From the IMG/VR virus record IMGVR_UViG_3300027917_000039: a stretch of 64,000 bases of DNA. One strand, given 5' to 3'. The translations under genes were made by a program, and so were the position numbers. The notes under the pieces are model-generated. The model ran no database searches, was not told the DNA's origin, and saw only the letters and a list, made by a program, of their open reading frames with translations. Position 1 is the stretch's first letter; each line of letters opens with the position of its first letter. Shown here piece by piece: positions 2,609 to 44,700 of this stretch. Source of the DNA: a virus.

Positions 2609-2880
2609 ATCAATCCTCCAAGGAACGCCAGCGTGCAAGCCATTACCGCAGCACAGACCACACTGTAGGCGATGTGTAAGTACCGTAGCCACTCGGTGAC
2701 GATCCAGGTGCCGACCACCTTCGCACCCACCAGACTCCATACACCCCACTTCCACAGGATGAACTGAGCGACCGGGTTCAACTCATCGTTCACGGTCAGA
2801 AACTGGCAGCACCAGATGTCGACCGCCGTGGCGAGCCAGATGAAACCGATCAAATGGATGCGAACTATTGAATGTCTCAT
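2605..2880 (-). CDS. small integral membrane protein (2-3 TM)
   Basis: 91 aa, hydrophobic. First gene after the conserved promoter. ATG sits 5 nt downstream of the -10 hexamer. Confidence 0.5.
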   Translation of the reverse strand: MRHSIVRIHLIGFIWLATAVDIWCCQFLTVNDELNPVAQFILWKWGVWSLVGAKVVGTWIVTEWLRYLHIAYSVVCAAVMACTLAFLGGLI

Positions 2881-11681: not shown

Positions 11682-11921
11682 TCAAACCATTTTCTCAATT
11701 TCGTGGCATTTCGATGATCCACGTTCAAATTCTCCAAACATTACTTCTACCGGATAACCCTCTTCCCTGGACAATTCCCACCAAACATCCAGACATTCCG
11801 GATGGCACTTGACAGTCATCAGTTCCCCGTCTTCCCAAGTCCCCTTCTCAATCCGTTCACCACACCACCAGCACCTGTGGTCCTTGCGGCATTTCTTGAT
11901 AGTAACGGTGCTCTCTTGCAT
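11682..11921 (-). CDS. small zinc-ribbon protein
   Basis: CRKDHRCWWCGER...VKCHPEC. Start at MQESTV overlaps the polymerase stop (TGATG). Confidence 0.45.
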   Translation of the reverse strand: MQESTVTIKKCRKDHRCWWCGERIEKGTWEDGELMTVKCHPECLDVWWELSREEGYPVEVMFGEFERGSSKCHEIEKMV

Positions 11922-14521
11922 CAGATCAAATCCTCCAGGGAAGACACGTCCGGGCACGGGTCCGGCTCTTCGTCAAGTTCTTCGAGTTCGCTGATGTCGA
12001 TTGGCTCAACGTACGGGGAGTCCTTGTCATCAGCGTTCCAGCCCTCGATGCCGTGCGGGCTGATCTTCACGTCTAGGTCAGAACCGCCGCCCTTCTTGCC
12101 CGCCCAATCCAACATGGACTTGACCCAATCCATTCCAATCAGCGGCACTTTGTCACGAAACGATTCAACTACCTCCACGACCACAGCGGTGACAGCGTCG
12201 ATCATCCACTTGGCGGTGACACTGAGCACTTCGTCGTGGACATTCATCGGGGCGACCAACCACTCGTGGACACCAGCAGGCTGCAAGTCCCATATCTTCC
12301 TCTGCAACTGCTTCGTGATCATTGCTCCAGGGGATTGGATGAGATGGTTGTTGGCAGCCCGGATGGTTGAGGCTTGGATTTGGAAGGCAGCACCGTAAAG
12401 GGCAGAAGAGACCGCTCCGGCGGGAGTCTGCGTTCGATCGCGTCGCACAACCTCAAAGTCGAGACGACGCCAAGGCTTTGGCACGTTGGTAGCCAGATCA
12501 TACAGTGCCTTGGCTATCCGGTTTTCGAGTGTGAAATACCGGCGGAAGCCCAGGAAGGTCTCGACATACTCGGCGGGTTCCTTGTAGGTAATGTGTCCGG
12601 TCCCGACTTCCCCGTGCTGCTTGAGAGCAGAGAAGTCTTCGGCGATCTTCTCGCGGGTTTCCTTGATGCCGGGGTACTCGTTCTGGAAATCGTCGAACGC
12701 CTTCTCAGCGATCTTCTTGGGGATGGACAACTTCTTGTTGATCGTGTTGGCGTCGCCTCCGTACAGCGTGGCAAACACAGCCTGCTTGCCACGAGTGTAC
12801 ATATCAATGTCGCCGCCGTCGGCGAATCCCTTCGACGCCTTGATCTGGTCGCGTGTCTTCTCCGGGTAAATCTTCTCAGCCATCAGGGTGTGGATCGAGA
12901 TGCCCGCCAGCAAGTTCTCGTGCAGCTTCTTGTCACCGAACACCGCGTCGGCGATCGTCACCTCGAACCCGTCGAAGTCCCCGCCGCATAGTTCCATGTC
13001 ACCCCACTTGAGCGGGAACGACCCACGCACTTCCTTGCTGCCTTTGATCCCTTGAGCGTTCAGTCCCTCACCACCCGCCATTCTGCTGGACAGAGTCCCG
13101 ATGACTTTGAACGCCGCGTGGAACCTGCCCGCGATGATGAGTTTCTCATACAGTTCAACTTCCTTTGCAGCAGCCTTGCATTTAAGGATTTCGTCTGCCC
13201 GTCTGGAAGCAAGAGTCGGACCTTCGGGTAGGAATCCTCTTCCTTCGCAACGGGGGCACTGTCCCGTCGTCTCTTCGCCAGTACCCAAGCAACGTATACA
13301 CATCTCGCCGCCAAGGTCGTGATCAAAATCGTCACTCCCGCTGTCCACAACGAATTCTGCACGTATCTTCTCCAGGTTGGCTTTCTTGGTTGACTTGTCG
13401 ATGAGCGTGGCTTCTGACTCATCCATCACTTCACGAATGTATGCCTTCACCTGAGAAGGCTTGTTGATGTTTACTGGGGATGCCTCAAGCACCGACTTGG
13501 ATTCTCGCAGAAGCCCGGTGACTTTCTCAGTATCAACGACAAATCCATGCCAGCGTACGGCTGCCACCATGCAGGAGAGCACCGAGTCGTTATCATCGGC
13601 TTCAGGGAATCCGAAGTATTCGTCGAGCAGTCGTGTATATGTAACGTCGTCTCGTGCGTATCGTCGCGCCTCTTCATTCGTTCTCCAATGCTCAATGTCG
13701 TAGTGAATCAGGGCTGGCCACGCAAAGCCCTTGAGTTTGTGGTTCTTGTCATAGACTTTCCAATCTTGCGCCCTCGTGGCGACGGCGAGAGCGAACGGAG
13801 CAAAGCCCAACTCAGCCAGCTTCATCCCTTCGCGCGTAGGGTACACGTCCTTGAACGAGTGGAACTCAGGGTCCAATCCAAGGCAGTTCTCGGCAAGATA
13901 CTTCAACCCGCGAGCGGGTTTGAACTTCAGAACAACGTCCTTGAAGTTCGGATCGACTTGGTCTTCCTTGCCCTTCTTGATTCGATCGTAGACACCCCAC
14001 TTCGGGGCGTTTGGGTTCTTCCGCCCTGCGAACAGGATGCCGTCGAACTCGATCAGTCCTTCCAGGTGCCGCTGCAATGGTGCTGCCAGAGCGGTCGGAA
14101 CCTTGGTGACGCGGACATCGTGCCGCGACATCAGGGTCTGGAACTGCCCCTTCCGGCTGTGCATCATGAGGCACATCACGCTCTTCGGCTTCACGCAAGG
14201 ACCGTCACGCGCATCCCTCTCGGCTTCTGCCAGTTGACAGGGTGACAGGGTGGACGGGACGACGTTGCCGTGCCGCTCCAGTATGACTCGCCACATCGTG
14301 TAAATCTTGCAGATGTGAAACCAGTCATACGTCGCGTTGAAGAACACGCACGTCCCGGTGCAGAAACGCTCGATCAGGTCGAGCGTCTCTTGCACGGGGA
14401 CATCCCAGAGATTGTGTAGGTGCTCTTCCCCATCTTCGTACGCCCACTGGATCAGGGTAGCCAACCCGTGGTATCCGCACGTCTCGGTGTCGATGTAGAA
14501 AGCGCTCTTACGAAATCTCAA
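11921..14521 (-). CDS. family A DNA polymerase with N-terminal 3'-5' exonuclease and an inserted DnaJ-type zinc finger
   Basis: Exo YIDTETCG. Pol motif A DFDGFEVTI, motif B RGKQAVFATLYGG, motif C VHDEVLSV. Insertion CIRCLGTGEETTGQCPRCEGRG. Confidence 0.85.
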   Translation of the reverse strand: MRFRKSAFYIDTETCGYHGLATLIQWAYEDGEEHLHNLWDVPVQETLDLIERFCTGTCVFFNATYDWFHICKIYTMWRVILERHGNVVPSTLSPCQLAEAERDARDGPCVKPKSVMCLMMHSRKGQFQTLMSRHDVRVTKVPTALAAPLQRHLEGLIEFDGILFAGRKNPNAPKWGVYDRIKKGKEDQVDPNFKDVVLKFKPARGLKYLAENCLGLDPEFHSFKDVYPTREGMKLAELGFAPFALAVATRAQDWKVYDKNHKLKGFAWPALIHYDIEHWRTNEEARRYARDDVTYTRLLDEYFGFPEADDNDSVLSCMVAAVRWHGFVVDTEKVTGLLRESKSVLEASPVNINKPSQVKAYIREVMDESEATLIDKSTKKANLEKIRAEFVVDSGSDDFDHDLGGEMCIRCLGTGEETTGQCPRCEGRGFLPEGPTLASRRADEILKCKAAAKEVELYEKLIIAGRFHAAFKVIGTLSSRMAGGEGLNAQGIKGSKEVRGSFPLKWGDMELCGGDFDGFEVTIADAVFGDKKLHENLLAGISIHTLMAEKIYPEKTRDQIKASKGFADGGDIDMYTRGKQAVFATLYGGDANTINKKLSIPKKIAEKAFDDFQNEYPGIKETREKIAEDFSALKQHGEVGTGHITYKEPAEYVETFLGFRRYFTLENRIAKALYDLATNVPKPWRRLDFEVVRRDRTQTPAGAVSSALYGAAFQIQASTIRAANNHLIQSPGAMITKQLQRKIWDLQPAGVHEWLVAPMNVHDEVLSVTAKWMIDAVTAVVVEVVESFRDKVPLIGMDWVKSMLDWAGKKGGGSDLDVKISPHGIEGWNADDKDSPYVEPIDISELEELDEEPDPCPDVSSLEDLI

Positions 14522-18774: not shown

Positions 18775-20646
18775 TTAGTCCTCTCCAATGCTCACGGTGT
18801 TGTAGAATGGATGGTTCTCGATGATATAGTCGATAGCATCCTTGAAGTACGTGCCCTCCAGCGTGAAGAGCCTTTCCTTGAGATTGATGTCGGCGAGGTG
18901 TGCTCTCTGCCGTTTCAACTCATCAGGGTTCGTAATCAACTCGACCGACTTGGCAATCAATGCCTGCGGGTCTTCAAAGTTGTTGTACGACATATCAACG
19001 CGGTCGTTGAGGTACATTCCCGCGCGATTGTAGAAGCGATCACCCACCAGCGTCAGGAATGGAATGCCCATCCACAGGGACTCCACTAGGACGTTGTAGC
19101 AACCGAACGGGAATGAGTTGAGAGCAAAGTCATGCTTCTCAGCCTCCCGCATGTAGTCGACATACTCCCACTGCGAATGAACGTACGCATTGGGAAGCAG
19201 GCGGGTCACTTCTCGAATGAACGGAGGCAACGCAGCGTAGCGGTTCAGTCCGGGCGACCCGAAGAGATGAAACTCGTGGGTCGTTTCGGGGTTGACTTGC
19301 AACGCACGCTTGTTGATCTCAGCCAACATGGTGAGCAGCGTGTGGTTGTACTTGTCCGGTCCCCAGACACAGTTGATCCGGACGACGCCGTCGTCAACGT
19401 AGTTGTGCTGTCGCTCGACACTTGGCCACGCAGGCTCTTGTGCCAAGCCGGGGATGAGCACCCGTGTCTCTGAGTAGGCGGCATCGGCATCCTTCTCCAC
19501 CTGTCCGCAGATGAAGTAGTCAATCTCGTTGCCGTCACCCGTCGTGTCTGGGTGCCCGTATCCCACGACTTGTATCGGAGCCATGCGAAAGTTCGACATC
19601 CAGATCGACTCGTCCGACATTCCGATGTCGGGGAAGTAGACCAGTTGGTAGTCGTTCTTCAGCACTTCGTCTGGAATCCGCAACTGCCCTTCACGGGTGA
19701 AGTAGGCGTGGTGAACTTCATCGAAGTAATCTGTCACCATCGTTGACGGCACCAAGTCTGGCGGGTTTGTCCAGATCAGGGTCAACTTGTAGTGCTCGCG
19801 AAGCTGTTCGAGCAACGGACCCTGCGACTTGTACACCGCGTGGTTGCGATGCCACCGCTCGGTGACGATCGCGATCGACTTCGGGTTGGGGTTATTCTCG
19901 AACGGCGGTGCAGTGCCCTTGGATTTGATCCCCTTGTTGATGATGCTCTTTACTCGCCGGACGGCGTTCTGATTGTGGTACGTGCATCCAAAGTACAGAC
20001 CGGACAGGCTCTGATGCGGCGGGACAAACCGCTCGTCCATCAGTTCCAAGTGCCGATAGAAATTCTTCTGGATGTTGAACGTCGGTGACGACAGACCGAG
20101 CATGTAGCTCATGTACCAGAGCGAAGCGAGAGCGGGATCGCAGTCGAACAGTTTCTTCTGGTCGATTTGAATCTCGCAACGCGGGTTGAGCAGTGACATC
20201 ATCTTGCCGACGTTGTTCTCGATGCCAAGCGAGGCGTCGAGTGCGGCATCGGTAGTCCGCATCGAACTGGACGCGAAGATGCTCTGTAAGACGTGCCCCA
20301 ACTGGATCAACTGAATTGCCGATTTTCCAACCGGGTAGAAATCTACGCGCGAGACAGCCATCGAATACGTGAAGCAAAAGTCATTCAGCTTCACGATCGC
20401 AGAGTTGCCGAATCGCATGTAGTGGTGCATCTCGAAGTAATGCAAGAAGTGAACGAAGTCATCCCACAGAGTGACATCGAGGTCCGCGATCTTGCGCATC
20501 GCCTTCCTGACATCGAGGGTCGGGATGTCTTGCTGCGGGTCTTTTGGCCACGCAACACAACACCCGTCGACCTTCTTGGACTTCACTACCTGCCGCTTGC
20601 GGCGGTTACGAGCTAACTCTTTCTCACGCTTCTTCGTTCTTGCCAA
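18775..20646 (-). CDS. GT41-family (OGT-like) glycosyltransferase
   Basis: RMAPIQVVGYGHPDTTGDGNEIDYFICGQVE...YSETRVLIP aligns with the OGT catalytic-region signature RPAPIQ..LGYPGTSG..MDYIITD...YSEKL. Has a basic N-terminal tail. Confidence 0.6.
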   Translation of the reverse strand: MARTKKREKELARNRRKRQVVKSKKVDGCCVAWPKDPQQDIPTLDVRKAMRKIADLDVTLWDDFVHFLHYFEMHHYMRFGNSAIVKLNDFCFTYSMAVSRVDFYPVGKSAIQLIQLGHVLQSIFASSSMRTTDAALDASLGIENNVGKMMSLLNPRCEIQIDQKKLFDCDPALASLWYMSYMLGLSSPTFNIQKNFYRHLELMDERFVPPHQSLSGLYFGCTYHNQNAVRRVKSIINKGIKSKGTAPPFENNPNPKSIAIVTERWHRNHAVYKSQGPLLEQLREHYKLTLIWTNPPDLVPSTMVTDYFDEVHHAYFTREGQLRIPDEVLKNDYQLVYFPDIGMSDESIWMSNFRMAPIQVVGYGHPDTTGDGNEIDYFICGQVEKDADAAYSETRVLIPGLAQEPAWPSVERQHNYVDDGVVRINCVWGPDKYNHTLLTMLAEINKRALQVNPETTHEFHLFGSPGLNRYAALPPFIREVTRLLPNAYVHSQWEYVDYMREAEKHDFALNSFPFGCYNVLVESLWMGIPFLTLVGDRFYNRAGMYLNDRVDMSYNNFEDPQALIAKSVELITNPDELKRQRAHLADINLKERLFTLEGTYFKDAIDYIIENHPFYNTVSIGED

Positions 20647-21808
20647 GAGGCACCTCCACGAGTTTGCCGAACTCGAATTTCAAGAGACCTTTGCATTCAA
20701 TCCCCAGCTTGATGATTTCGTCTCGGATGTCGAGCGATCGCCAGGACGTGGTGCATATGATATAGTCAACGGGGAATTTCTTCAACGCTGTCGGAGAGAC
20801 CATCGGAATCTTCGTGCCGGGCACGCAGAATCCCCATTTCTCTTCGTGGCTGTCAACCACGAGAGTGGTATCCGGCAGCTTGAACTTGTTGATGAACATG
20901 GCGGACTTTCCACCGCCGCCCCACAGCGCGACCCTGTCGGTCGTGTTCACCAACCAGCTACGCACTTCGTCGATCTTGGCTTGAGCCCGCTTGTACTTGA
21001 ACAGGATTTGATCAACCGTCAAACCCTTGGTCCGCTTGGGCTCCAGCTTCGCCATCGCGACGATCACTTCACCACCATACGTGGTGGCTGCGTGAGAGAA
21101 CTCAATCCCGCACGCGCGGAACAGCTTCATCATGCTGAGCACAGTGAAGTGTTGTGGGTGCTCGTACGTCCAGTCTTCGATGCGGCATTTCTTCAATGCC
21201 TCTTGACAGCACGGGACTTCGATGAGCAGGATTGTGTCTTGGGCTCGCTTCTCAGCCATCCGGACAATCGGCTCGATGAACTCGCGCGGATTCTCCATGT
21301 GCTCCAGAAGGTGCCGCATGATGATCACCAACTTACCGCCGTCCAGCGGGATGTGCTGCTTCGGGTCGAAGTGCTCGCGGTAGTATTGGATGCCCAACTC
21401 TTCCGCTCGCTCGACTGCCTCGCACGGGTCGATCGCGATCTTGATCGCGTCGGTGTTGATCCGGTTGAGGAACTCGCAGTCGCCCGCACCGACTTCGATG
21501 ATCAATTCAACGTCTTCGATTTCTTCGACTTGCTTGACCGTTACCTCAACGTGCCTCTGCCAGCCGCTCCCACTATTGTACATGCGACAGCCAGCGGCTG
21601 CGTACGATACGTGGTTCGGATTGAAGTCGATGTTGTGGACGTGCCCGCAGTTTCGGCAGATCGCCAATCGGATTCGGTGGCGTTCCAACGATGCAGACTG
21701 CAACGGGTCGCGCTGCAATGCCACAAGAGACATCGGCTGGCTGCCCATGTCGAACAACACTTCTTGGTCTGTCGATTGACAGGCAGGGCAACATTGGATA
21801 TAACTCAT
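20624..21808 (-). CDS. SAM-dependent C-methyltransferase, TcaB9/TylCIII-like (Zn-ribbon + class I MTase + C-terminal domain)
   Basis: N-terminal CPAC...CRNC zinc ribbon, motif I LIIEVGAGDCEFL, about 390 aa with a three-domain architecture typical of sugar C-methyltransferases. Confidence 0.55.
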   Translation of the reverse strand: MSYIQCCPACQSTDQEVLFDMGSQPMSLVALQRDPLQSASLERHRIRLAICRNCGHVHNIDFNPNHVSYAAAGCRMYNSGSGWQRHVEVTVKQVEEIEDVELIIEVGAGDCEFLNRINTDAIKIAIDPCEAVERAEELGIQYYREHFDPKQHIPLDGGKLVIIMRHLLEHMENPREFIEPIVRMAEKRAQDTILLIEVPCCQEALKKCRIEDWTYEHPQHFTVLSMMKLFRACGIEFSHAATTYGGEVIVAMAKLEPKRTKGLTVDQILFKYKRAQAKIDEVRSWLVNTTDRVALWGGGGKSAMFINKFKLPDTTLVVDSHEEKWGFCVPGTKIPMVSPTALKKFPVDYIICTTSWRSLDIRDEIIKLGIECKGLLKFEFGKLVEVPLGKNEEA

Positions 21809-21969: not shown

Positions 21970-22342
21970 TTTCCAATTCTCCAAATAATGGGATGACGTA
22001 TACGCCGTAGTCTTCGTGATCACACCACTCTTTGATGTCGATCTCATCTTCCGGACCATGCACCAACAGCTTAGGCAACTTCAAACCATCCAAGGCTGAC
22101 ACCAGCCTGCGAACGTAAAAGAAGCCAAGCGACTTCTCATTCAGCTTGACATCGACAAGTTCACCGGCTTCGGTCGCCAGCACCTGGACTTCGATCGCTT
22201 CGATTCCGTACTCCCGATCCGCCTTCACGGTCAGGTTTTCCAGAATCCACTGAATGCCTTCGTTTGCCGGACACGTCCCGACAGTGTACAAGTCGAGACC
22301 TTCGGGGACCGACAACACACCAACCACTCGCGCGTCACTCAT
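21959..22342 (-). CDS. hypothetical protein
   Basis: Starts MSDARVVGV and overlaps the SNF2 gene stop. Confidence 0.4.
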   Translation of the reverse strand: MSDARVVGVLSVPEGLDLYTVGTCPANEGIQWILENLTVKADREYGIEAIEVQVLATEAGELVDVKLNEKSLGFFYVRRLVSALDGLKLPKLLVHGPEDEIDIKEWCDHEDYGVYVIPLFGELENAT

Positions 22343-24257
22343 CGCACATCTCCTGAAATTCACCAAGCGTCATTTGTTCAAGCCGACGGTTGTCACGCAA
22401 CACGCCGAGAACCTTACGGTCAGTACCAAGATGGAACAGGTCGACAATCGTCGCTCCCTTGTTCTCATCCATTCCCGGTCGGTGGATTCGGTCTTCAGCT
22501 TGCGAGCGAGACTCAGGCATGAAATCGTTCGAGTAGAACACCGCCATGCGAGCCTCAGTCAAGGTCAGTCCCATTCCTCCAGACGCCGGGTGCGCTACAA
22601 ACGCCACCCGCTCTTTCGTCATATCTGCCCAGTAGTCAAGGGGCTTGCACTGCTTCGCAGTGATCTTTGTGCCGTCGGCTGGCATCACTTTCCAGCCGCG
22701 ACCGTCAACCTTCACCACGTCCCAATGCTGCTTGTGGCAGAGGCTGATGATTCTGTCTACCGATCCCTGGAAGCCAGCGAAGATCACGAGACGCCCCTGG
22801 TCTTCGTTCTCTTCCAGCAGATCGCGTATAGCCTGATCCTTCGGCGTGTTGATCTGTTTCGTTTCCCGAACCATGTTCGGAACTTCACCCACACCGTCAC
22901 AATAACTGCACGGTCCGAGCCGCTTCTCGTAATGGTCCAGGTCATCTTGAGCGTCTACGTCGACCTTCTCACCATCGAAGTACCAGTCTTCCTTTTGTCC
23001 TTTTCCCTTGCAGACGGGGCACGAGATGGTGGGTTTCTTCTCGTCCTGCTTCTCGCGATACTGGAACCCGTCGCTCAGTTCACGCAGCCACGTCAATCCT
23101 TGAATCGCGGATATGGCGGATTTGGCCAGCGCTTTAGCCACTCGTTTAAGCGTGGATGTGGGTTCAAGTTCGACGACTCGATAGTTCTTGTCCGGTATGT
23201 CGAGGCAGTCTTTCTTCTTGAGGGTGACGACCAAACCTTCGAGTCGATCGTGAAGGAAGGCGACCTCGTTCTTTGAGGGTACGAAGTCGTGGTTTCCTTC
23301 GCCTCCGCCGAACAGAATAGCGTCTTCATCCATGACATGATTCGCATGATCGGCGTACTCACCGCATATATCACATTTGTTCTCGTCATCTCTCCACGTC
23401 TTTCGTTTCCAGAACTCTCCGGCATCGGTCATCTGCTTCTCGAAGATGGCGAGCCGGAACTCAAATGCCTTGTCGCTTCCTTCCTTGATGAAGCCTGGGT
23501 ATGCGATCTCACACTGTGCCCACCAGTCGACGGGCGATTTGGGCGAGGGCGTGCCGGACATGAGAATCACGTATCCATCCCAGCCATGCTCCCTCCGGAT
23601 CGAATCCGCCAGATGGGCAGCCGCGCGGGTCCGCTTGGCGTTCCACGTCTTGAGCCGGGACGACTCGTCGAAGATCACACCAACGGGCGCAGGTCGTCCC
23701 TTCTCCCACTTCTCGATCTCGATCCTCAGACGGTCGTACGTCATGAGGTTGGGCATTACCTTCAAGCCCCATTTGACAAACTCCCGTTCAACTGCGGCGA
23801 GACCTGACTTGGGGGCAACCCACCACCAGTCAGTGACGCCAGACTTTTCCATGAGTTCGATGGCTGCCAGGGTCTTACCGACGCCCATTTCAGCAGCCCA
23901 GATTTGGTAGTGGTAGGTGAGCCCTTGGTCGGCGAGCATCTTCTGGTGGTCGAACAGCGGGCGGGTGTAGCCGAAGTTTCTCAGCGGCTGCTCCCAATTC
24001 TCGTAGGGGTTGCCGCCCTGCATGTAGTCAAGCTGGAAGTTGTTCCGGCAGCAGTCTTCGACCGACCATATCTTTCGGTTGTCATCAGGTATGAAGCCGT
24101 GCCAGCGGGAGCCTCGCATCGCCTTGATCTCACCCTTCAACGCGAACGGTGACTTCAGGAAGTAGATGCGACTGCCGTCACGCTCTATCGTGGCGGGAAC
24201 CTTGAGCAAGGTTCCTTTCTTTGTCTCTGTGATCAGTTTGATTTCTTCAATCGTCAT
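22335..24257 (-). CDS. SNF2/Rad54-family ATPase (helicase-like) with an inserted DnaJ-type zinc finger
   Basis: Walker A AAEMGVGKT, DExx IFDESSRL, SGTP, helicase C GGMGLTLTEARMAVF...QAEDRIHRPGM. Insertions CDICGE...H..H and CPVCKGKG...CSYCDGVG. Confidence 0.8.
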   Translation of the reverse strand: MTIEEIKLITETKKGTLLKVPATIERDGSRIYFLKSPFALKGEIKAMRGSRWHGFIPDDNRKIWSVEDCCRNNFQLDYMQGGNPYENWEQPLRNFGYTRPLFDHQKMLADQGLTYHYQIWAAEMGVGKTLAAIELMEKSGVTDWWWVAPKSGLAAVEREFVKWGLKVMPNLMTYDRLRIEIEKWEKGRPAPVGVIFDESSRLKTWNAKRTRAAAHLADSIRREHGWDGYVILMSGTPSPKSPVDWWAQCEIAYPGFIKEGSDKAFEFRLAIFEKQMTDAGEFWKRKTWRDDENKCDICGEYADHANHVMDEDAILFGGGEGNHDFVPSKNEVAFLHDRLEGLVVTLKKKDCLDIPDKNYRVVELEPTSTLKRVAKALAKSAISAIQGLTWLRELSDGFQYREKQDEKKPTISCPVCKGKGQKEDWYFDGEKVDVDAQDDLDHYEKRLGPCSYCDGVGEVPNMVRETKQINTPKDQAIRDLLEENEDQGRLVIFAGFQGSVDRIISLCHKQHWDVVKVDGRGWKVMPADGTKITAKQCKPLDYWADMTKERVAFVAHPASGGMGLTLTEARMAVFYSNDFMPESRSQAEDRIHRPGMDENKGATIVDLFHLGTDRKVLGVLRDNRRLEQMTLGEFQEMCDE

Positions 24258-24296: not shown

Positions 24297-24809
24297 TTAC
24301 GGATGATATTCCAGAAGAAATGTGTGGTCGCGGTTGTGAGGTTTGGATTTGAAATCGAAAGCCGACGCCAATCCGATGTTCTTGAACTCGGTAAAGATCA
24401 GGTTGTACGTGTGCCGAACCTCCCGGCTGACTTCCTTCTGGCACCCACGCAGAATCGCGGCGTGCCACTGTAGGAGTGTGCCAGCAATGAACCCGACGAA
24501 GATGCCCCGCTCGATGGACTCCACCATGACGGTTGGCATCCCTGCCACCTCCAGAATCTCAGCCCAGTCCCGCTCGTCAGCGGCGATGATGAAGCCCGCA
24601 TGGAATAGCCCAAGGATGGGCTTGATGTCGTTCGCCGACTTTGCGTTCGGGTTCTTCATCGCCGCGATACACAGCATGTGATGCAACGGAGGTTCGTGAC
24701 CGGCAGAGTCAGCCGCATCAGCGAGATTTCGATCAAGCGACTGCCGACCAAGAGGCAGGAACTTCCGCGTATCGAGACTGGAAAACTGGACGAGAGCAAC
24801 TCCGCTCAT
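24297..24809 (-). CDS. hypothetical protein
   Basis: 170-aa ORF whose stop lies 4 nt before the promoter -35. Confidence 0.45.
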   Translation of the reverse strand: MSGVALVQFSSLDTRKFLPLGRQSLDRNLADAADSAGHEPPLHHMLCIAAMKNPNAKSANDIKPILGLFHAGFIIAADERDWAEILEVAGMPTVMVESIERGIFVGFIAGTLLQWHAAILRGCQKEVSREVRHTYNLIFTEFKNIGLASAFDFKSKPHNRDHTFLLEYHP

Positions 24810-25108
24810 TACTCACCTTTGATCCCTAGCCACTGGTTGCTGAAATCCATTAGAGCCGCGTTCGGACAAGCACCACGACCCACCAGCTTCGAGCCGTCAT
24901 GGAACTCAGCCACGGCGACCCATTCGAGCCCGTCATGGGACATCCGGGGGATATAGTGGCGGTGCGGGAGTGTCTGCATTTGGTAGATAGCCCTGCGGGC
25001 TTCCGCTTCCTCCAACTCCACCTTGGCTGTCTGCGCCTTCAGGCTCTCCGCTTCCTCTCTGAACCGGAGGATAGTGTCCGAATCTTTCATGGAACTGGGA
25101 GCCATGCT
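24809..25108 (-). CDS. hypothetical protein, C-terminal half of a possible frameshifted gene
   Basis: Good coding quality begins at MAPSSMKDSDTILRF. Its upstream part in this frame is junk-like. Confidence 0.35.
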   Translation of the reverse strand, partial: SMAPSSMKDSDTILRFREEAESLKAQTAKVELEEAEARRAIYQMQTLPHRHYIPRMSHDGLEWVAVAEFHDGSKLVGRGACPNAALMDFSNQWLGIKGE

Positions 25109-25307
25109 TGACAGCAAAGAGAGCAGCCCAGACAGCGTTTCCCACTGCTGCGGCGTCAAATGGTGGGTTGATAACGTAGTTGGACATGATGTTGTCCCGC
25201 CGCGCGACCAGGGAGAGGACGCCACTTTCATCAGCGATTTCAAAAGTCGTACCATTTTGCGCACACCACCTTAACGTCTTTTCCAGGTCGTAGTCGAGTT
25301 CACTCAT
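24933..25307 (-). CDS. hypothetical protein, N-terminal half of a possible frameshifted gene
   Basis: Good coding quality from MSELDYD to ...FHERFGHYPP, then a P/G-rich junk-like tail reading through the other ORF. Confidence 0.35.
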   Translation of the reverse strand: MSELDYDLEKTLRWCAQNGTTFEIADESGVLSLVARRDNIMSNYVINPPFDAAAVGNAVWAALFAVKHGSQFHERFGHYPPVQRGSGEPEGADSQGGVGGSGSPQGYLPNADTPAPPLYPPDVP

Positions 25308-25379
25308 TTGGGTCTCACAAAGGAACCTCCCGGCGGGCGACCGAGGAAATGCGCCCACCGGGAGGGAAGAGGCTGACGG

Positions 25380-26069
25380 TTAGCGAGCACGCTTGCTGCG
25401 TGTCTCGGTGGCTTCCTCGTCTACCTTCTCGGCACCCTTCTCAGGGTTGCGGAACTTCTCAACCTCTTGGTTGATCTGCTCCACCGTTACCTTCATCGCG
25501 TCTTCCGCGAAAGGCTCCGAGCACTTGGTGATGACGGGGACATGCCAGCCGTAGTCGGGCATCTTCTTGTATCGGATGCCGAGCGACGCGGGCTCACGGT
25601 TGTAGAGGAACGGACGCAGCTTGGCAGCTTCGTTCCGCCCGCTCTTGTTGCCGAAGAACAACTCGAACAACTTGCCAGTCGTCCGTTCAAGCACGAGGAA
25701 CGACGGTCCCCACATGCAGCCGGTGTTCTTCGGGGCGGTCTTGATCCGCTGGAACTCTGGATCGTTAGTATCATAACTCGCGATGATCGCGTCCTTGTCG
25801 GACACGTCCAGAGCCTTTGGGCGGTAGTCCAGAACGATCACGTCGATCTTGTCGCCAAGGTCTTCAATGTCATCGCCGCCGGGCTGAGGCACGCCCCATC
25901 GACCAGGGCTGATCTTGCCCTCATCGACGTACTTGCCTTTGGTGATAAGTTGGATACGAGGCAGGAAGTCCGTACCCTTTGCGACTTCGTCGAGGGTCTC
26001 GACAACGTCTTCGCGGACGGCGGGAAGCATGTTCAGTTTGTTGGCGAAAGGAACCAGTTCGTTCGACAT
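25380..26069 (-). CDS. hypothetical protein (second gene of the first early operon)
   Basis: 229-aa ORF immediately downstream of the ParB-like gene. Confidence 0.45.
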   Translation of the reverse strand: MSNELVPFANKLNMLPAVREDVVETLDEVAKGTDFLPRIQLITKGKYVDEGKISPGRWGVPQPGGDDIEDLGDKIDVIVLDYRPKALDVSDKDAIIASYDTNDPEFQRIKTAPKNTGCMWGPSFLVLERTTGKLFELFFGNKSGRNEAAKLRPFLYNREPASLGIRYKKMPDYGWHVPVITKCSEPFAEDAMKVTVEQINQEVEKFRNPEKGAEKVDEEATETRSKRAR

Positions 26070-26071
26070 AG

Positions 26072-27004
26072 TTAGTCTCCAGTTTTGGAATGGTCAAATA
26101 CAAATTTCTTAATCAGGTCACGATTGAGTTTCATCCACTCGTCTCTTGTTGCTCTTACTTCACTGTCTTTCTCTTTCTCCTGTCTTCCGGCACGTTTCGC
26201 TTCAAGGGTAATGGGATCGAGACGCAACAACCACTGCAAGCACGCCACCCAGCCGTCTCGTGGCGTCTTTGCTCCGAGAGCTTCACACACACCCTTCCAC
26301 TTCGTAGGCTTTAGAGCCTCACGCTTCAGGACATTGATCGCTCTCGGTTTGGGGTTGGTATCGACCCCGAACTTTCGGTCTTCCTGTTGCAGCCGCATCA
26401 GGTACGCTTTGTAATCCCGATTGGCTAACTTAGCTCGTTCGATGAACTCGCTGGCGCCCATACCGATGGCGTCGTCAACGAACTTCTCCTGCAAGTCGGC
26501 GGGCAAGTTTGCTAACGCAAGTGCCGCCTTCATACTTATCTCGCCTCGCTCGAAAGCCGGGATGGCACTCTCGCAAAGGCGGTTCAACTGCAACTGGTCT
26601 TTGACCCACTGCGGGGTCTTGTCAATCAACACGCACAACTCTAAAAGAGATCGCCCACTCTCCATGAGCATCTTCAATCGTCGTGCGTATTCAAATGTGT
26701 GAGTCTTCGGTCGGATCGCATTGCACTTCAACTGGAAGATCAAGACTTCATCGTCTGTCATCTCCCTGATGAGACAAGGAATAGCCACCAACCCGGCTTC
26801 CTTCGCCGCCTCAAACCGATGCCAACCTTCAACGATCTCGTATCGCCCATCCTTGGGACGAACCAAGATGGGTTGCAACAACCCGTCCTTGGCGATCGAC
26901 TCGACCAACTCGGTGTACTCTGGCGATCTGCGCCGCACTGGTCTGAGACTAATGCGTGGGCGGTCGATCTCGGAAAGTGGTAGGAATCGTTGTTCGTGCG
27001 TCAT
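26072..27004 (-). CDS. ParB/Srx-like nuclease-domain DNA-binding protein
   Basis: LRPVRRRSPEYTELVESIAKDGLLQPILVRPKDGRYEIVEGWHRFEAAKEAG matches the ParB N-terminal domain. Start at MTHEQ. Adjacent to the iteron region. Confidence 0.6.
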   Translation of the reverse strand: MTHEQRFLPLSEIDRPRISLRPVRRRSPEYTELVESIAKDGLLQPILVRPKDGRYEIVEGWHRFEAAKEAGLVAIPCLIREMTDDEVLIFQLKCNAIRPKTHTFEYARRLKMLMESGRSLLELCVLIDKTPQWVKDQLQLNRLCESAIPAFERGEISMKAALALANLPADLQEKFVDDAIGMGASEFIERAKLANRDYKAYLMRLQQEDRKFGVDTNPKPRAINVLKREALKPTKWKGVCEALGAKTPRDGWVACLQWLLRLDPITLEAKRAGRQEKEKDSEVRATRDEWMKLNRDLIKKFVFDHSKTGD

Positions 27005-27016
27005 TGCTCTACATCT

Positions 27017-27025
27017 ATTGTAGCA
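27017..27025 (-). promoter_or_regulatory. extended -10 promoter TGCTACAAT (leftward) within the inverted repeat AAAGTTGCTACAATAG
   Basis: Minus-strand read AAAGTTGCTACAATAGATGTAGAGCA-ATG (ParB-like start). Leader only about 6 nt. Confidence 0.4.
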
Positions 27026-27075
27026 ACTTTGATCCGTATTTTCCGCGCGTTCTCGGTTTTCTCGGCACTTTCTCG

Positions 27076-27404
27076 GCGGCGGAGTTTTGGCGGAGGCGGA
27101 GTTCGGAAAACACTCCCTATGCAAAACTTGTCATGGTTGCACGATTTTCCTTGGGACTTGTTTTTGAACTCCGCCTCTCCGCCTTTCGATGACGGCTTTC
27201 TCTAAGTCCTTTGAAGCTAGTGGGTTATGAGTTACCTACCACCCCGGAGAGGGGGCGGAGTTTTTAGGCGATTTCGACGAAACTCCGTCCCCTCTATCGG
27301 GTGGTGTGGTGATTTGGCAACACCCTGTAGAGGGGTTTCCACCCGTTAGAGGGGGCGGAGTTTTCGTCGCCGACGGCGAAACTCCGCCAATTCTCCGCCC
27401 CCGC
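27076..27404. repeat. iteron array: GGCGGAGTT(T) direct and inverted copies, two near-palindromes
   Basis: Direct copies at 27078, 27095, 27254 and 27354. Inverted copies AACTCCGCC at 27167 and 27380, with a variant at 27281. A 17-nt unit AGAGGGGGCGGAGTTTT occurs twice. Palindrome GGCGGAGTTTTCGTCGCCGACGGCGAAACTCCGCC at 27354-27388. Confidence 0.6.
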
Positions 27405-27513: not shown

Positions 27514-30264
27514 ATGCAACGCAACCCTTCTGTTACGTCTGCGTTCCAGACGTACTTTGAGAACGTCCTCAAACAGAACCACAACAATCCGGCGCTTATA
27601 TCCAGGTGGGGCGCCGAACCCGCCCGCTTCGAGACACAGATCATGTGCAAGAAGATGGGCACGCCGATCCCAGATTCACAGAAGTGGACCTGCGATGGCG
27701 AGACGTTCGGACCACAACGCTGGCCATACGACTCTGACACTGAGCCCAACTACAGCGACCCACCCATCCAGTACAACATCGGTGAGAGACTCCTGGCGAT
27801 CGGAACAAGCTGGTGGGATTGGAAGAACAAGCGATCCATCGGGCTAGGCTTCGACTTCGACTCGCTCATCGACCACGATGAGGGCGTCGGTGTCGATCAG
27901 TCTACCATCGCCAAGTTGGACAGACTGGACTTGCCGTGGGTGGAGGTGATCCGCTCGACGCGGGGCAACGGACGACACATCTATATCTGGTTCGATCCAG
28001 ACAACGCCCCGATCGCAAACAACCATCTTGAGCACGCCGCGATCGCTCGCTCATTCCTCCCGCTGCTGGCGACCCACTCAGGACTTGACATCGACACGAG
28101 CGTCGACTGCAAGGGTCTGATCATGTGGATTCACCATGTGAACGCGACGAAGGAAAACCGTGGCTACGAACTCGTCAAACCAGCAACGCAAATTCTGACT
28201 GCCGATCATGTTCCTCCGAACTGGAAGGATCATCTCGAAGTCGTCTCCGGCAGCAGAACCAAAGTGCGCGTCCAAGGATGGACGCCCAATGGTACAACAT
28301 CGGGTGATGAACTCGATGAAATGACCCAGGCGTACTCTCGTACCGAACTGGACGAAGTTCACCTGAAGATTCTGGAAGAACTGGAAGGTACGGGGCACAC
28401 GTCGGTGTGGGTCCACGACCACCATCTGTGGCAAGGTCATACCGGAGCATTGAAGCAGGTGTATGACGATTTCGCCGAACGCGGCACGCCGCTGCGCGGG
28501 CTGTTCGACACGAACTCATCAGATACTGACCCTGGCAAGCCCAACTGCTTCGCGCGACCCAAGCCCGGAGGTGCTTGGGACGTGTATCGTTTCGGTGAAG
28601 GCACGGCAGAGCACCCTCTGTGGGATCAGCAAGGCAAGTGGACCCACATCGGATTCAACACCCAACCCACACTGAAACAGGTATGCTTGGCGAGCGGAGG
28701 CTATGAAGGACCGGACCAACGAAAAGGATTCCTGTTCGACTCAAAGGATGACTTCCTGGCTGCCTTGGAGTTGTTGGGCTCGAAGGTGAAGCTGCCCAAG
28801 AAGGCAGACGGCAGGGAGTTGTCGCTGAGAATGATCGACGGGAGGATCGTGGCGACGGTCGAGAAGAAACGCGGGGATGAGAAAGAAGACTTCCCGCGAT
28901 GGGTGAAGGGCTCCGGCGTCTGGGAGCGACTCATCGACGACGCTGATGAGACTGCTGATACGGAAATGGAGGAAGAGACTCTCTGGTCCGAACTGGACGG
29001 GAAGTTCCGAGCCCTGCGGGTTGCGGGTGTGTGCGGTGGGCAATTCCACTCGTGGGTCATCTACGACAACACTGAGTCGTGGACCACCCACCCTCGCGAG
29101 AATATCAAATCGTATCTCGCCTCCATTGGCTACAAGCAGGCAGATGGGCTGCTTGGAGGCGCCATCTACAAATGCTGGACCCTCGTGAATGAACCGTTTG
29201 GACCTGAGTACCCTGGAGGACGTATGTGGAATCGTGATGCCCCGCAGTTTGTTTACCCACCCGTCGATTTGAAGGAAGGCGAAGAACCGAAACACCCGAC
29301 ATGGAACAGATTGCTTGAGCACTGCGGTGTCGAACTGAACGAATACATCCCAGAGTTGAAATGGTGCAAAGACTGGGGCATCACCACTGGCGGCGATTAC
29401 CTGCTCGCGTGGATTGCCTGCATGTTTCAGAACCCTTGGTGCAAGCTGCCGTACCTCTTCATGTACGGTCCGCAGAACAGCGGGAAGTCATCGTTCCATG
29501 AGGCTATCGGCTTCTTGCTGACAAAGGGAGTGGAGAAAGCCGACCGGGCGTTGACATCGAAGCAAGGCTACAACGGCGAACTGGAGGGAGCGATCCTGGC
29601 AGTTGTCGATGAAGTTGACATCACGAAGGCAGGGTCGGAAGTCTACAACAAGCTGAAGGAATGGGTGACGGCGGGGACGATCTCGATACACGCCAAGTAC
29701 AAGCAAGTTGTGGACATGCCCTCTACTCTGCACTTCGTACAGATGTCCAACGACCGCCGCAGCTTGCCAGTGTTCCCAGGCGACACGCGGATCACGGCGA
29801 TGAACGTGCCGTTCCTTGAAGCCGAGATTCCCCGTGATGAGTTCCATCGCAGGCTCAAGGAAGAGGCGTCTCACTTCATGCGGTCGGTAGTGGACTACCA
29901 TATGCCGCCGCCGATCGGACGCCTCGCGTTACCGATCATCGAGACGCAGGGCAAGATCGACGCCGCTGACGCGAACACTGACGATCTGGAATTGTTCCTT
30001 GAAGAGAAGTGCTTCCCGGTTCCGGGGGCGTTTATCAAGATCACCGACTTCATGGAGAAGCTGCACGCCTACTTGCCAGAGCATCTTATCTCAGATTACC
30101 CCAGGCGGGTGGTGGAGCCAAGACTGAAGGAACGCTACGTTGTTGGAATGGGATCAGGAAAGAACAACCAAGTATTGATCGGAAACCTATCATTTAACCC
30201 TAACGCGAAGCCCAGCACACCGTACACAAGAGAGGGTGCGAAGGTACGAAAGGAAGAACTATGA
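27514..30264 (+). CDS. bifunctional AEP primase-polymerase / D5-like SF3 helicase
   Basis: AEP motifs GLGFDFDS (DxD) and TRGNGRHIYIWF (sGxGxH). SF3 Walker A YLFMYGPQNSGKSSF and Walker B LAVVDEVD. Confidence 0.8.
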   Translation: MQRNPSVTSAFQTYFENVLKQNHNNPALISRWGAEPARFETQIMCKKMGTPIPDSQKWTCDGETFGPQRWPYDSDTEPNYSDPPIQYNIGERLLAIGTSWWDWKNKRSIGLGFDFDSLIDHDEGVGVDQSTIAKLDRLDLPWVEVIRSTRGNGRHIYIWFDPDNAPIANNHLEHAAIARSFLPLLATHSGLDIDTSVDCKGLIMWIHHVNATKENRGYELVKPATQILTADHVPPNWKDHLEVVSGSRTKVRVQGWTPNGTTSGDELDEMTQAYSRTELDEVHLKILEELEGTGHTSVWVHDHHLWQGHTGALKQVYDDFAERGTPLRGLFDTNSSDTDPGKPNCFARPKPGGAWDVYRFGEGTAEHPLWDQQGKWTHIGFNTQPTLKQVCLASGGYEGPDQRKGFLFDSKDDFLAALELLGSKVKLPKKADGRELSLRMIDGRIVATVEKKRGDEKEDFPRWVKGSGVWERLIDDADETADTEMEEETLWSELDGKFRALRVAGVCGGQFHSWVIYDNTESWTTHPRENIKSYLASIGYKQADGLLGGAIYKCWTLVNEPFGPEYPGGRMWNRDAPQFVYPPVDLKEGEEPKHPTWNRLLEHCGVELNEYIPELKWCKDWGITTGGDYLLAWIACMFQNPWCKLPYLFMYGPQNSGKSSFHEAIGFLLTKGVEKADRALTSKQGYNGELEGAILAVVDEVDITKAGSEVYNKLKEWVTAGTISIHAKYKQVVDMPSTLHFVQMSNDRRSLPVFPGDTRITAMNVPFLEAEIPRDEFHRRLKEEASHFMRSVVDYHMPPPIGRLALPIIETQGKIDAADANTDDLELFLEEKCFPVPGAFIKITDFMEKLHAYLPEHLISDYPRRVVEPRLKERYVVGMGSGKNNQVLIGNLSFNPNAKPSTPYTREGAKVRKEEL

Positions 30265-41742: not shown

Positions 41743-44700
41743 CTAACGAAGTTTAATGTTCCCACGCTGTACTTCACGGCGAAGGGCGTGGGCGATCTCG
41801 CGCACCGTCTGCTGCGAGGAATCTCCACCGTTTACCGAGACGTTGATGTCACCTACGTTGGTGACGGGACCACCCTGCTCTCGGTAAACAGGTTGGTTCC
41901 CTTGGTTCATGGCATTCAGTTCTGAGAAGAACCGACGCGAGTTCTTGGAGTTGATGACGGTCTCACCAGCGGACAAAGCTGTGAAAATCTTGTCCTGCCC
42001 GCGAGTCAACTGTCCAAGGTTTCCGCCAGCAGCAAAGTATCGACGCATCGGACCGCCGTGGTAAGCCACCGCACCGCCGCCGACCGACACTTGCTGTGAC
42101 GCGACGGCGGCTCGCTCCAACTGAGCAGCCAACTGGCTGGCAGCCGACGCAGCCGCGACAAGGTTCGGTAACGTCTGACCAGATGCTTGAGCGGTAGCTT
42201 CAGCACCTTGCCCTGCGTTCTGCAAACCTTGTCCAACTTGCTGTGCTGGCGTAACCGTAGCAGAAGTCTTCTGCTGAGTCTCGCCAGCTTTGGTGGCGGC
42301 TTCTTCCTCTGCTTTCACCTTGCGATCCAAAGCATCGTTCAAGCGTTGGGCAGCGTTGACTTCCTCTTGTGGAGTTTCAGCTTTGAGCTTGTTGATCGTC
42401 CGTTGACGTTCTTGAATTTGAGTCAACAGATCAAGTTGCTTCTGTGCGTTGCCCTTTTGGGTCTCGTCAAGCTGCCCTTGCTTTACAGCCTCATCGAATA
42501 ATTGCTGAGCCTTCGTCAGTTCGTCCTGGCTGATGTACTCATTTCGACTGGCTTGCTCTTTCAGATTTCCAAGCTGCTCCATGAGAGCAATCTCTGCTCC
42601 CATTCGCTGCTCGACAAGACGCTCAGCTTGCTCAGTTTGCTCAGCCTGCGTCGTTCGGCTTAACCCAAGCGTGACCAAAGCCCGGAAACCCGAAGTCATC
42701 GTTTGGACGCCTTGGATTCCGCGAAGCACAGTCTCGCCTTGCTGATTCAGAATGTTGTTGCCTTCAGTGTAGGCAGCATTCAACTGCTGTACAGCACCTT
42801 GTCGAAGAATGTCCTCGCTGCGAAGTTGTCGAACTGTTTCGATGTTGTCCTTGAGGATGTCTTGGGCTTTACCAAGAGCCCTCTCGCCAAACGATGAAGC
42901 AGACTCACCAGGAAGCTGCCCGCCAGTGACAGTGTCAGCGTCGGCTGCTGTTTGACCTTCTAATCCGACCTGCGCCTTGAGTTGGAACGTCTTTGATGCA
43001 AGTTCTGCTTCAAGTCGCTCAACCTCTACTGCCCAGTTAAAATGGGCTGCGTCCATCGCGCGCTGGAAACCTTGCGAGGCTTCAGCAAAGTCCTTGTCAA
43101 TGCCGGTAGTAGCCGCTTTAGCAGCGTCAGACGCCAGCTTCGATCGAATCTCTTCAACAACGTCGATCAGTTGCTTGTCGATGTCAGCAATGGCTGCTGG
43201 GTCTGTAGTCTTGGCACGCTCTTTCAGCAAGTCCTGCTCGCGCTTAAACAGGTCTTCCAGTGCTGCCTTTTCTTCCTCGCGAGTTTGCAGTTCGTCCTTG
43301 ACCTTGCTTACGCTCTCTTGGACCTTTTGATTGTACTGCTCGACTACGCCAATCTTTCCTTTGATTAGCTTTTGAATCTCGTCTTCGTAACGAGACGCCA
43401 TGAAGTTTTGCTTATTCGACTCAGCCAGTTGCTTATTCTGCTCGGCATAAGCGATAGCACGATCGTAAGCATTTAAGGCTGCTTCCTTGGAACCTTCATC
43501 TGTTGGATCGAGAGCCTTTGCTGCTTGTTCGGCGGCTCTCGTGGCTTTCTGAGTTGCGTCTTCAAGAATCCTTGACTGCTGTGCGTAGTTTCCTTCCCAT
43601 CGGTCAAGCTGCTGTTGCAACTGGCGATCTTGAATCTCAGATTGTAGATCGGCGACTTCCTCAGCGGAATCTTTTGCAAGATTTTTGGCGTCGTCTAAGA
43701 ATTTCTTCAGCTTGGTGATGCTGTCACTGTAGTAGCCAACAATACCGTCGGCGGCAACCTTGAGTCGTTTGTTGGCGGCTTTGACACTTTCCTCAAACGA
43801 CTTGCGTACTTGCCCTTCCTTCTTTCGCACGTCCGACACCCAGTCAGCATAGGCTTTCTTTGTGTCGTCAAACGCTTGTGGCATGTCCTTGCCATACGCC
43901 GCAGCGACCCGCTTCGCCGTCTCTTCGAGAGCAGCTTGGGCTTTCGCAGTATCATCAGTTATTCCAAGCAACTTTGAGAGACCAGGGTAAATCTTGTCAA
44001 GTTCTACCTTGAAATCAGTCATACCAAACGTGACAAGATTCAAGGTGCCTTGGAGCAACTCCAATGCACCCTTGAAGCCGTAGGCAGCCCCTGTCGCGAT
44101 CGGCAGAAGGGTCATGCCGATCTCGGTCCAGGCATTCTTCATGTCTTCGACGGCTTGCCTGTTGCGGAAGGCGTCGGTGTTCTCGAACTCTTCGATGGCT
44201 TGCTTGGCGGCGCCTCCTGCGTCTCCAATTTCTCTTAGGGCTTCGGCGTAAGTCTTACCGCCGTCGGTAGCAGCCGCCATATAGCCAGTGATCGAACGAA
44301 CTCGTTGGAACAGTTCGCCGATGGCTTTCGCGTCGTTGCCGGTTTCTTTGGCGATCGCTTTGAAGACGCCTTCCAAGCCGCCAAACTTCTGGATCGCTTG
44401 AGGTGCGGTCTCGACATTCCATTTCTCAAACAGAGCCTGCATCTCTTCACCAGGACGCAACAGCTTCTGCAACACTGATCGCATTTGCGTGACGGCTGTG
44501 GAGACATTGACGCCCTGACGAGTCATAACTGCGAGAGCGGCAGCCACTTCATTCCAGCTTACGCCCATCTGAGCGGCAAGCGGAGTCACACGACCGATAG
44601 CGTTCGCCATGTCTCCCATTCTGATACGACCGATTTCGATCGTCTTGAACAGGGAGTCCATGACGGCGTCAGTGTCTTCAAACGCCAAGTTGTATGAGTT

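Follow-up and report, generated by a model that had tools for sequence, protein, structure and literature searches.

A probable DnaJ CR-type zinc module in the inter-lobe hinge of a phage SNF2-family ATPase

Introduction

A 64,000-nucleotide stretch of viral DNA (IMG/VR record IMGVR_UViG_3300027917_000039, referred to at its full length as the window) encodes, on its minus strand, a SNF2-family ATPase that carries a pair of CxxCxGxG zinc knuckles, as known from the CR domain of DnaJ, between its two RecA-like lobes. The locus raises the question of what such knuckles do in the middle of a DNA motor: whether they form a module of the DnaJ CR type, whether the motor depends on it, and whether it is connected with the similar motif pair in the family-A DNA polymerase (PolA) of the same phage. 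The pair had been picked out in a sequence-only reading of the window, made without database searches, which took the parallel with PolA as a sign of a common partner or regulatory mechanism. Here we report that the hinge of the SNF2 protein very probably holds a CR-type zinc module, and weigh what this module may be for.

SNF2 motors are specialised mainly by parts inserted in, or attached to, a conserved core. In fork remodellers, add-on modules of this kind couple the motor to the replisome, among them the RING of Rad5/HLTF, the NZF and PIP elements of ZRANB3 and the RPA-binding motif of SMARCAL1. Zinc-binding insertions have been described in SNF2 motors, and CR-type zinc fingers also occur in proteins other than DnaJ, phage polymerases included. 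In the literature, no description was found of a phage SNF2 protein bearing a zinc insertion, DnaJ-type or other, or of a CR-type module in a SNF2 hinge; a module of this type seems to be undescribed for the SNF2 family.

Position and sequence of the module

The open reading frame (ORF) at 22335..24257, the translation of which includes KKPTISCPVCKGKGQKEDWYFDGEKVDVDAQDDLDHYEKRLGPCSYCDGVGEVPNMV, given also as TISCPVCKGKGQKEDWYFDGEKVDVDAQDDLDHYEKRLGPCSYCDGVGEVPNMV, has two RecA-like lobes with the superfamily 2 motifs I-VI, including a motif VI of the SNF2 type. Walker A reads GVGKT (K128), motif II DESS (D197 E198), motif III SGTP and motif VI QAEDRIHRPG, and the motif residues K128, D197/E198, G235, Q586, R590 and R593 are invariant in the ortholog alignment. 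Scanned at full length against Pfam, the window protein has a Helicase_C match over threshold and a match to the SNF2-related domain PF00176 (residues 171-368) that remains below it (21.2 bits; cutoff 24.9); many orthologs have a precomputed PF00176 match, and the low score appears to be that of a divergent SNF2 member, not of a non-member. PHROG 62, annotated as DNA helicase, matches the protein at 1e-54, and a profile of 76 orthologs run against the PDB retrieved ISW1, SNF2h, INO80, SWR1 and Sso-Rad54, with a best E of 2e-18. The alignment with ISW1 starts lobe 2 at 'PKd..LL', equivalent to 'aaKlqvldkLL' of ISW1.

The knuckles CPVCKGKG (C413, C416) and CSYCDGVG (C450, C453) were found where the sequence-only reading had put them, with the ends of the interval, 22887 and 23021, exact to the nucleotide. 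The linker between them, described there as acidic and about 30 residues long, has 29 residues with 10 Asp/Glu and 4 Lys/Arg. Pfam, the PDB alignment and the AlphaFold2 (AF2) model agree in placing the pair between the two lobes, as had been proposed, and specifically between the SNF2-related match and Helicase_C. In the AF2 model, a helix (residues 384-395) ends in 'WLRELSDGFQY' and is followed by a beta-hairpin with strands 398-404 and 462-468, the tip of which bears the knuckles and the loop, before lobe 2 ('PKDQAIRDLL') starts at P472. The block containing the loop has a lowered predicted local distance difference test score (pLDDT) of about 63. On account of this order of helix, hairpin and lobe 2, and because the hairpin is simply closed in relatives that have no module, the module is modelled as an insertion in the short linker from lobe 1 to lobe 2, at the hinge.

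The pair cannot be put down to chance: when the residues of the SNF2 protein were shuffled 200,000 times, a single CxxCxGxG arose at P=0.00125 and two copies never. Translated in six frames, the window has five matches to the motif in all, namely the SNF2 pair, the pair in PolA and an isolated one. The last, CGLCCGNG at 2639..2662 (-), is a single motif without a partner knuckle.

Conservation and loss

The homologue search with the SNF2 protein gave 2008 proteins at E<=1e-5. The ortholog set comprises 103 full-length sequences of 55-100% identity; the distant set consists of 119 full-length cluster representatives of 40-62% identity, and the exhaustive search among 50%-identity cluster representatives gave 5407 relatives, of which 529 reached E<=1e-30. 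Conservation of the Cys pairs, on which the sequence-only reading had staked its claim, is borne out in both sets, C413, C416, C450 and C453 being invariant in 103/103 orthologs and all four Cys being retained in 114/119 representatives (about 96%). The knuckle glycines are kept less strictly (G418 in 70/103 orthologs, G420 in 86/103, G455 in 100/103 and G457 in 57/103); depending on knuckle and set, G at +2 occurs in 68-97% of the sequences and G at +4 in about 55-85%. The conserved part of the module is limited to four Cys and two Gly, the remainder being highly variable in length and sequence. Between the knuckles, the linker ranges from 4 to 75 residues across the family and is net acidic in 210/215 members, with 26% Asp/Glu compared with 14.7% protein-wide.

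Five of the 119 representatives (P0134, P0190, P0236, P0247, P0265) miss the whole module cleanly and read DGFQY, a turn of 10-15 residues, and RVP. Because the closest relatives of every one of these proteins bear the module, their distribution suggests that it was lost several times independently. Since these losses were not accompanied by loss of the SNF2 gene, the motor appears to function without the module, which is dispensable in some lineages. No separate CR protein or small ORF was found beside the module-less SNF2 genes of the loci L081 and L082, and the idea that the module had split off as a small gene nearby was rejected on this basis. At the other extreme, a few relatives (P0233, P0240, P0243, P0255, P0256) have three or four CxxC knuckles.

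When the module region was compared by tblastn with a collection of 50,697 phage records, no match was obtained. With the full SNF2 protein, the best matches in this phage collection had at most 26% identity and were mostly to shorter genes (about 310-425 codons matched), for which reason the window phage appears to have no close cultured relative; the module, too, seems to be absent from cultured phages. In the viral structure library BFVD, the matches were all generic SNF2 helicases of phages, with 12-18% identity and in no case full-length coverage.

Relationship to the DnaJ CR domain

When the 75-residue segment is scanned in isolation, the top Pfam match is DnaJ_CXXCXGXG (PF00684; E=0.0013, 19.4 bits). 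With the full-length protein, this family is absent at E<=1 and only Anti-TRAP is listed, at 0.69; the CR signal emerges only with the isolated segment or a family profile. A profile of 64 module sequences, run against the PDB, found the CR domain of E. coli DnaJ first (1exk, E=9e-5), followed by DnaJ 6jzb and the DNAJA3 CR domain 2ctt, with weaker matches to UvrA zinc modules (E=0.02-0.1), Nanos and Anti-TRAP. Fold matches of the module were confined to CR-type domains, which places it among them by fold. Of the relatives with additional knuckles, the four-knuckle protein P0240 reaches 33.5 bits with PF00684, above the gathering score of 32.7, and P0255 reaches 31.5 bits with Anti-TRAP, for which the cutoff is 32. 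RING models matched the module of a single relative (P0240, E>0.2) and not the window segment. The segment scan, the PDB profile and the fold matches thus converge on the DnaJ-type knuckle pair that had been read from the motif, and at the level of motif and fold the module appears to be of the DnaJ type. We are confident, short of certainty, in its identity as a CR-type zinc module in a SNF2 hinge.

The likeness extends to the build of the element. As in the DnaJ/Hsp40 CR domain and its one-zinc derivatives such as Anti-TRAP and BSD2, the CxxCxGxG knuckle is repeated and has a hydrophobic residue after it; like the CR domain of DnaJ, which sits in C-terminal domain I, the module is a beta-hairpin with adjacent termini that can be inserted into another hairpin; and its four-knuckle relatives, which pass PF00684, reproduce the nested 1+4 / 2+3 arrangement. 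The differences are in number and context. The DnaJ CR domain has four knuckles and two zinc ions, whereas the window protein, like most orthologs, stops at two repeats, with one zinc ion predicted, and does not show the four-repeat arrangement with two zinc centres; where DnaJ has its inner zinc centre, the module has a long acidic loop. DnaJ also combines its CR domain with a J domain and Hsp40 client-binding domains, whereas the host protein of the module is a SNF2 ATPase with neither. By the hallmark of a Hsp40/DnaJ co-chaperone, a J domain with HPD, the SNF2 protein is not one of them: none was found in the window protein, in 269 family proteins or in about 215 linkers, the HPD tripeptides present there being coincidental.

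Possible role of the module

In the reading that we prefer, to which we give roughly an even chance, the module is a one-zinc CR-type hairpin in the hinge that presents an acidic loop for docking or regulation. One Zn2+, predicted to be held by C413, C416, C450 and C453, would clamp the base of a beta-rich excursion, and the tip of this excursion would be the loop of variable length that is nearly always acidic. The module would be an accessory element and not a part of the motor, serving as a rigid platform that presents the loop for protein contact, be it with a replisome or host partner or, within the molecule, as a gate against the basic DNA-binding cleft at the hinge. In this it would resemble the add-on modules of Rad5/HLTF, ZRANB3 and SMARCAL1. 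Taken on its own, the docking or regulatory function is the more tentative part, and we place it somewhat below even.

Several points weigh against this picture as a whole. The window module, at 19.4 bits, stays well under the PF00684 cutoff of 32.7, and knuckle 1 is without its GxG in many orthologs (CPVCEDGT, for example); short Cys/Gly-rich motifs can converge, and the likeness to DnaJ may have arisen in this way. An exposed acidic loop, for its part, could be acidic simply through its exposure to solvent. The HARP assignment of the N-terminal domain, discussed below, is one weak match (E=0.032) with zero Pfam matches. Finally, repeated loss of the module is compatible with a purely structural role as well.

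Such a role, a zinc staple that would stabilise a lineage-specific enlarged inter-lobe beta-hairpin and have no ligand of its own, is the competitor to be taken most seriously, although we think it unlikely. It would explain the confinement of conservation to four Cys and two Gly and the several losses of the module from a retained gene, and the nearby second, independent zinc site (C295, C298, H307, H323) suggests a habit of zinc-stapling. A neutral staple should, however, decay more often: in a clade both old and very large (529 representatives at the stricter threshold), about 96% of the members keep the module, and some lineages have even elaborated it to three or four knuckles. The acidity of the loop, persisting in nearly all members at any length between 4 and 75 residues, is likewise not what a staple without a ligand leads one to expect.

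That second site had been noted in the sequence-only reading as 'CDICGE...HANH'. It exists, and C295, C298 (encoded at 23364..23375) and H307 are invariant among the orthologs; H304, in contrast, is variable, and H323, present in 102/103, is the likely fourth ligand of the putative site. The site is kept in most representatives, even in the module-less P0134. In the AF2 model, the two putative zinc sites are separate, about 90 residues apart with helices between them.

The parallel with PolA

The PolA of the window carries its own motif pair (Table 1). In published 'HMO-2011-type' phage polymerases, the region that separates the exonuclease from the polymerase domain contains two CXXCXGXG motifs and has been described as a 'partial DnaJ central domain' (PMC9038755, PMC6918029). 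They thus show the same type of motif pair in a phage replication enzyme, and the arrangement in the window PolA is identical; their insertion, however, belongs to family-A polymerases of marine podoviruses and not to SNF2 proteins, and the window phage is siphovirus-like. An assignment of the window PolA to the HMO-2011 type was considered and dropped, as those phages were neither among the listed matches nor in the organism summary for the phage collection.

For comparison of the surroundings, 80 related viral loci with 10-kb flanks were used, to which two more were added (82 loci), together with the window. Across them, ORFs with at least two CxxCxGx[GKRQ] motifs encode either SNF2 (19) or PolA (18) exclusively, and the parallel is therefore specific. 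PolA is syntenic in the related loci, and its insertion mostly has two knuckles, with four to six in L012, L036 and L080, none in L021 and a compact CxC...CxxC in L081. Where a locus spans both sites, both modules are present in 23/25 cases. In L021, the SNF2 module is present and that of PolA absent; in L081, the SNF2 module is absent and the compact Cys4 site of PolA is kept. The parallel drawn in the sequence-only reading accordingly holds at the level of the motif. It does not extend to detectable homology: with the hidden Markov model of the SNF2 module, PolA is matched at a noise-level E=0.92, and this match was rejected as evidence that the two modules are duplicates of one another.

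In two of the loci (L066:17704-20436 (+) and L074:19631-21433 (+)), a complete J domain lies between the knuckles of PolA, in frame inside DNA_pol_A; it exceeds the gathering score of Pfam DnaJ (E=1e-12 to 1e-10) and has an HPD motif, e.g. AYRHLAKQYHPDKGGSAEDFKQLQEAY. Such a domain points to Hsp70 recruitment, for PolA at least, as far as can be judged from sequence. A DNA polymerase with a built-in domain for recruiting Hsp70 seems unusual, and the J domains in PolA are a more surprising lead than the SNF2 module.

The CR domain of DnaJ contributes to client handling with DnaK, and one may ask on these grounds whether the modules of PolA and SNF2 are a shared handle that binds one factor, either the host DnaK/Hsp70 or a replisome protein of the phage, and so couples assembly or remodelling of the two enzymes. 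The restriction of motif-rich ORFs to these two genes, the joint presence of the modules in nearly all loci spanning both sites and the genuine J domain in some PolA insertions all speak for it. Yet common descent alone predicts the co-occurrence, and the geometry is unlike, with a 6-residue linker in PolA and an acidic linker of 29 residues in SNF2. Because the modules were lost independently (L021, L081), because the SNF2 profile misses the PolA insertion and because J domains are absent from the roughly 215 SNF2 linkers and the 269 family proteins, a shared partner is possible but unsupported. The common partner or regulatory mechanism put forward in the sequence-only reading has consequently found no direct evidence, and we consider it improbable.

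Replication of phage lambda is known to depend on DnaJ/DnaK, of which a more specific proposal would be a hard-wired version: in a large clade of uncultivated tailed phages, DnaJ-derived CR hairpins in the HARP-SNF2 protein and in PolA, joined in some lineages by a complete J domain within PolA, would recruit the host Hsp70 (DnaK) in cis to the replisome. There, Hsp70 would assemble, remodel or recycle the replisome, and the SNF2 module would be a surface for handling DnaK or clients. We regard this proposal as a long shot.

DNA contact and redox control as unlikely alternatives

Still less probable to our mind is a pin or wedge in contact with DNA, by analogy with UvrA zinc modules and primase zinc-binding domains, which would touch branched DNA and aid strand annealing or fork regression. 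The module does adjoin lobe 2 at the inter-lobe hinge, Lys/Arg occur inside and just after its knuckles (CPVCKGKGQK), and the weak UvrA matches (E=0.02-0.1) fit such a role; set against these are the strong and consistent acidity of the loop, fold matches that are all to protein-binding CR-type domains and to no DNA-binding zinc ribbons, and the apparent dispensability of the module in several lineages. A redox or thiol switch, in which oxidation would free the zinc and alter the mobility of the hinge as in Hsp33, can draw on the chemistry of Cys4 zinc sites and on the disulfide isomerase activity reported for some plant CR-like proteins, and is very hard to credit, being an analogy alone, with nothing pointing to redox regulation and no associated thioredoxin-like gene.

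Comparison with other SNF2 motors

With these alternatives weighed, the hairpin presenting an acidic loop from the hinge is best compared with the zinc domains of other SNF2 motors. The site of the module presumably corresponds to the 'major insertion region' of SNF2 proteins. The RING of HLTF/Rad5 presumably occupies the same stretch, from an 'LRLRQ..H..L' helix to the 'SSK...L' start of lobe 2. Bacteria and phages are not known to have an E2 or ubiquitin system.

The RING of Rad5 is embedded in the Snf2 domain, makes little contact to it, is probably mobile and is functionally autonomous (PMC7804152). Rad5, HLTF, SHPRH and Rad16 share with the phage protein an autonomous zinc-binding domain for protein interaction embedded in a fork-remodelling SNF2 motor, if our reading of the phage module is right (PMC7804152). 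The domains themselves differ: a RING is cross-braced, of the C3HC4 type and binds two zinc ions, whereas the phage protein has no such element and instead a hairpin of the CR type with one predicted zinc ion.

A second comparison is with SMARCAL1, which has an N-terminal HARP domain followed by a SNF2 motor. The family profile of the N-terminal domain (residues 1-98) has a single PDB match, the HARP domain of SMARCAL1 (4o66), which is weak (E=0.032); Pfam gave no match to this domain at E<=10, HARP included. With reservations, the phage protein may be described as a HARP-like domain on a SNF2 motor. This architecture would make it SMARCAL1-like and probably a double-stranded DNA translocase, annealing helicase or fork remodeller of the replication module. 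SMARCAL1 is an annealing helicase, and the phage gene stands in a replication module beside PolA, primase-helicase-like and exonuclease-like genes. SMARCAL1 is not known to have zinc insertions between its lobes and is recruited via its RPA-binding motif; the phage protein has a single HARP-like domain, and this at weak statistics.

In metagenomes, phage SNF2 proteins with a chaperone-type zinc hairpin in the hinge form a very large family that appears to be uncharacterised. If the module is indeed a docking or gating element, it would show how recruitment or control of a phage fork remodeller is achieved; if it is a structural staple only, it amounts to an ordinary note on domain architecture. 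The module is small and deletable, and natural deletions already exist. The J domains of PolA raise the testable idea that the host Hsp70 is wired into the phage replisome, which, if true, would matter both to the study of phage-host relations and to that of DnaJ-like zinc fingers in proteins other than chaperones.

Features of the locus and side observations

The coordinates of the features discussed are compiled in Table 1.

Table 1. Features of the window, with module boundaries as modelled and zinc sites as predicted
Feature	Position	Strand	Residues and remarks
SNF2-family ATPase gene	22335..24257	-	640 aa + stop
N-terminal beta-rich domain, HARP-like (with reservations)	23973..24257	-	aa 1-95; AF2 secondary structure
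RecA-like lobe 1	23478..23960	-	about aa 100-260; Pfam, PDB alignment, AF2
First putative zinc site, C295-x2-C298-x8-H307-x15-H323	23289..23375	-	aa 295-323; between lobe 1 and helical region
Probable DnaJ-CR-type module with carrier beta-hairpin	22854..23066	-	aa 398-468
Knuckle 1, CPVCKGKG (C413, C416)	22998..23021	-	aa 413-420
Variable acidic linker	22911..22997	-	aa 421-449
Knuckle 2, CSYCDGVG (C450, C453)	22887..22910	-	aa 450-457
RecA-like lobe 2, motifs IV-VI	22428..22844	-	about aa 472-610; Pfam Helicase_C aa 473-595
Family-A DNA polymerase (PolA) gene	11921..14521	-	
PolA pair, CIRCLGTG-x6-CPRCEGRG	13235..13300	-	aa 408-429; upstream of Pfam DNA_pol_A match
ParB-like gene	26072..27124		
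DUF5906 primase-helicase-like protein	27514..30264		916 aa
Tape-measure gene	41743..45252		

Inteins are present in 45/269 family proteins (for example P0018, P0030, P0034, P0039, P0044, P0126, P0132 and P0176), bringing these to 750-1350 residues, and many have precomputed Pfam matches to Intein_splicing and/or HNH_3. They recur at three sites, most often in the Walker A loop (GVG|KT; residues ~125-128) and otherwise at C249 (~249) and C351 (~351), and some proteins have two. In the window protein, conserved cysteines (Cys249, Cys351) stand at two of these insertion points, and the zinc module is free of inteins.

As a tape-measure gene is present, the window belongs to a tailed, siphovirus-like phage. 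The replication module around the SNF2 gene also includes MazG-like and exonuclease-like genes. Directly downstream of the SNF2 region lie a gene for a 394-residue protein resembling sugar C-methyltransferases (20624..21808 (-); Methyltransf_23, Methyltransf_14 and an N-terminal zinc-binding Methyltransf_13) and one for a 623-residue protein without a family match (18775..20646 (-)). Neither would be expected beside a replication module, and the two might be connected with DNA or nucleotide modification. Between the ParB-like gene and SNF2, three small genes (170, 151 and 229 residues; 24297..26069 (-)) have no family matches, and the layout of L082 is similar, with genes of 228 and 148 residues at this place. 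These small ORFs may encode as yet unrecognised partners of the SNF2 protein in replication or recombination.

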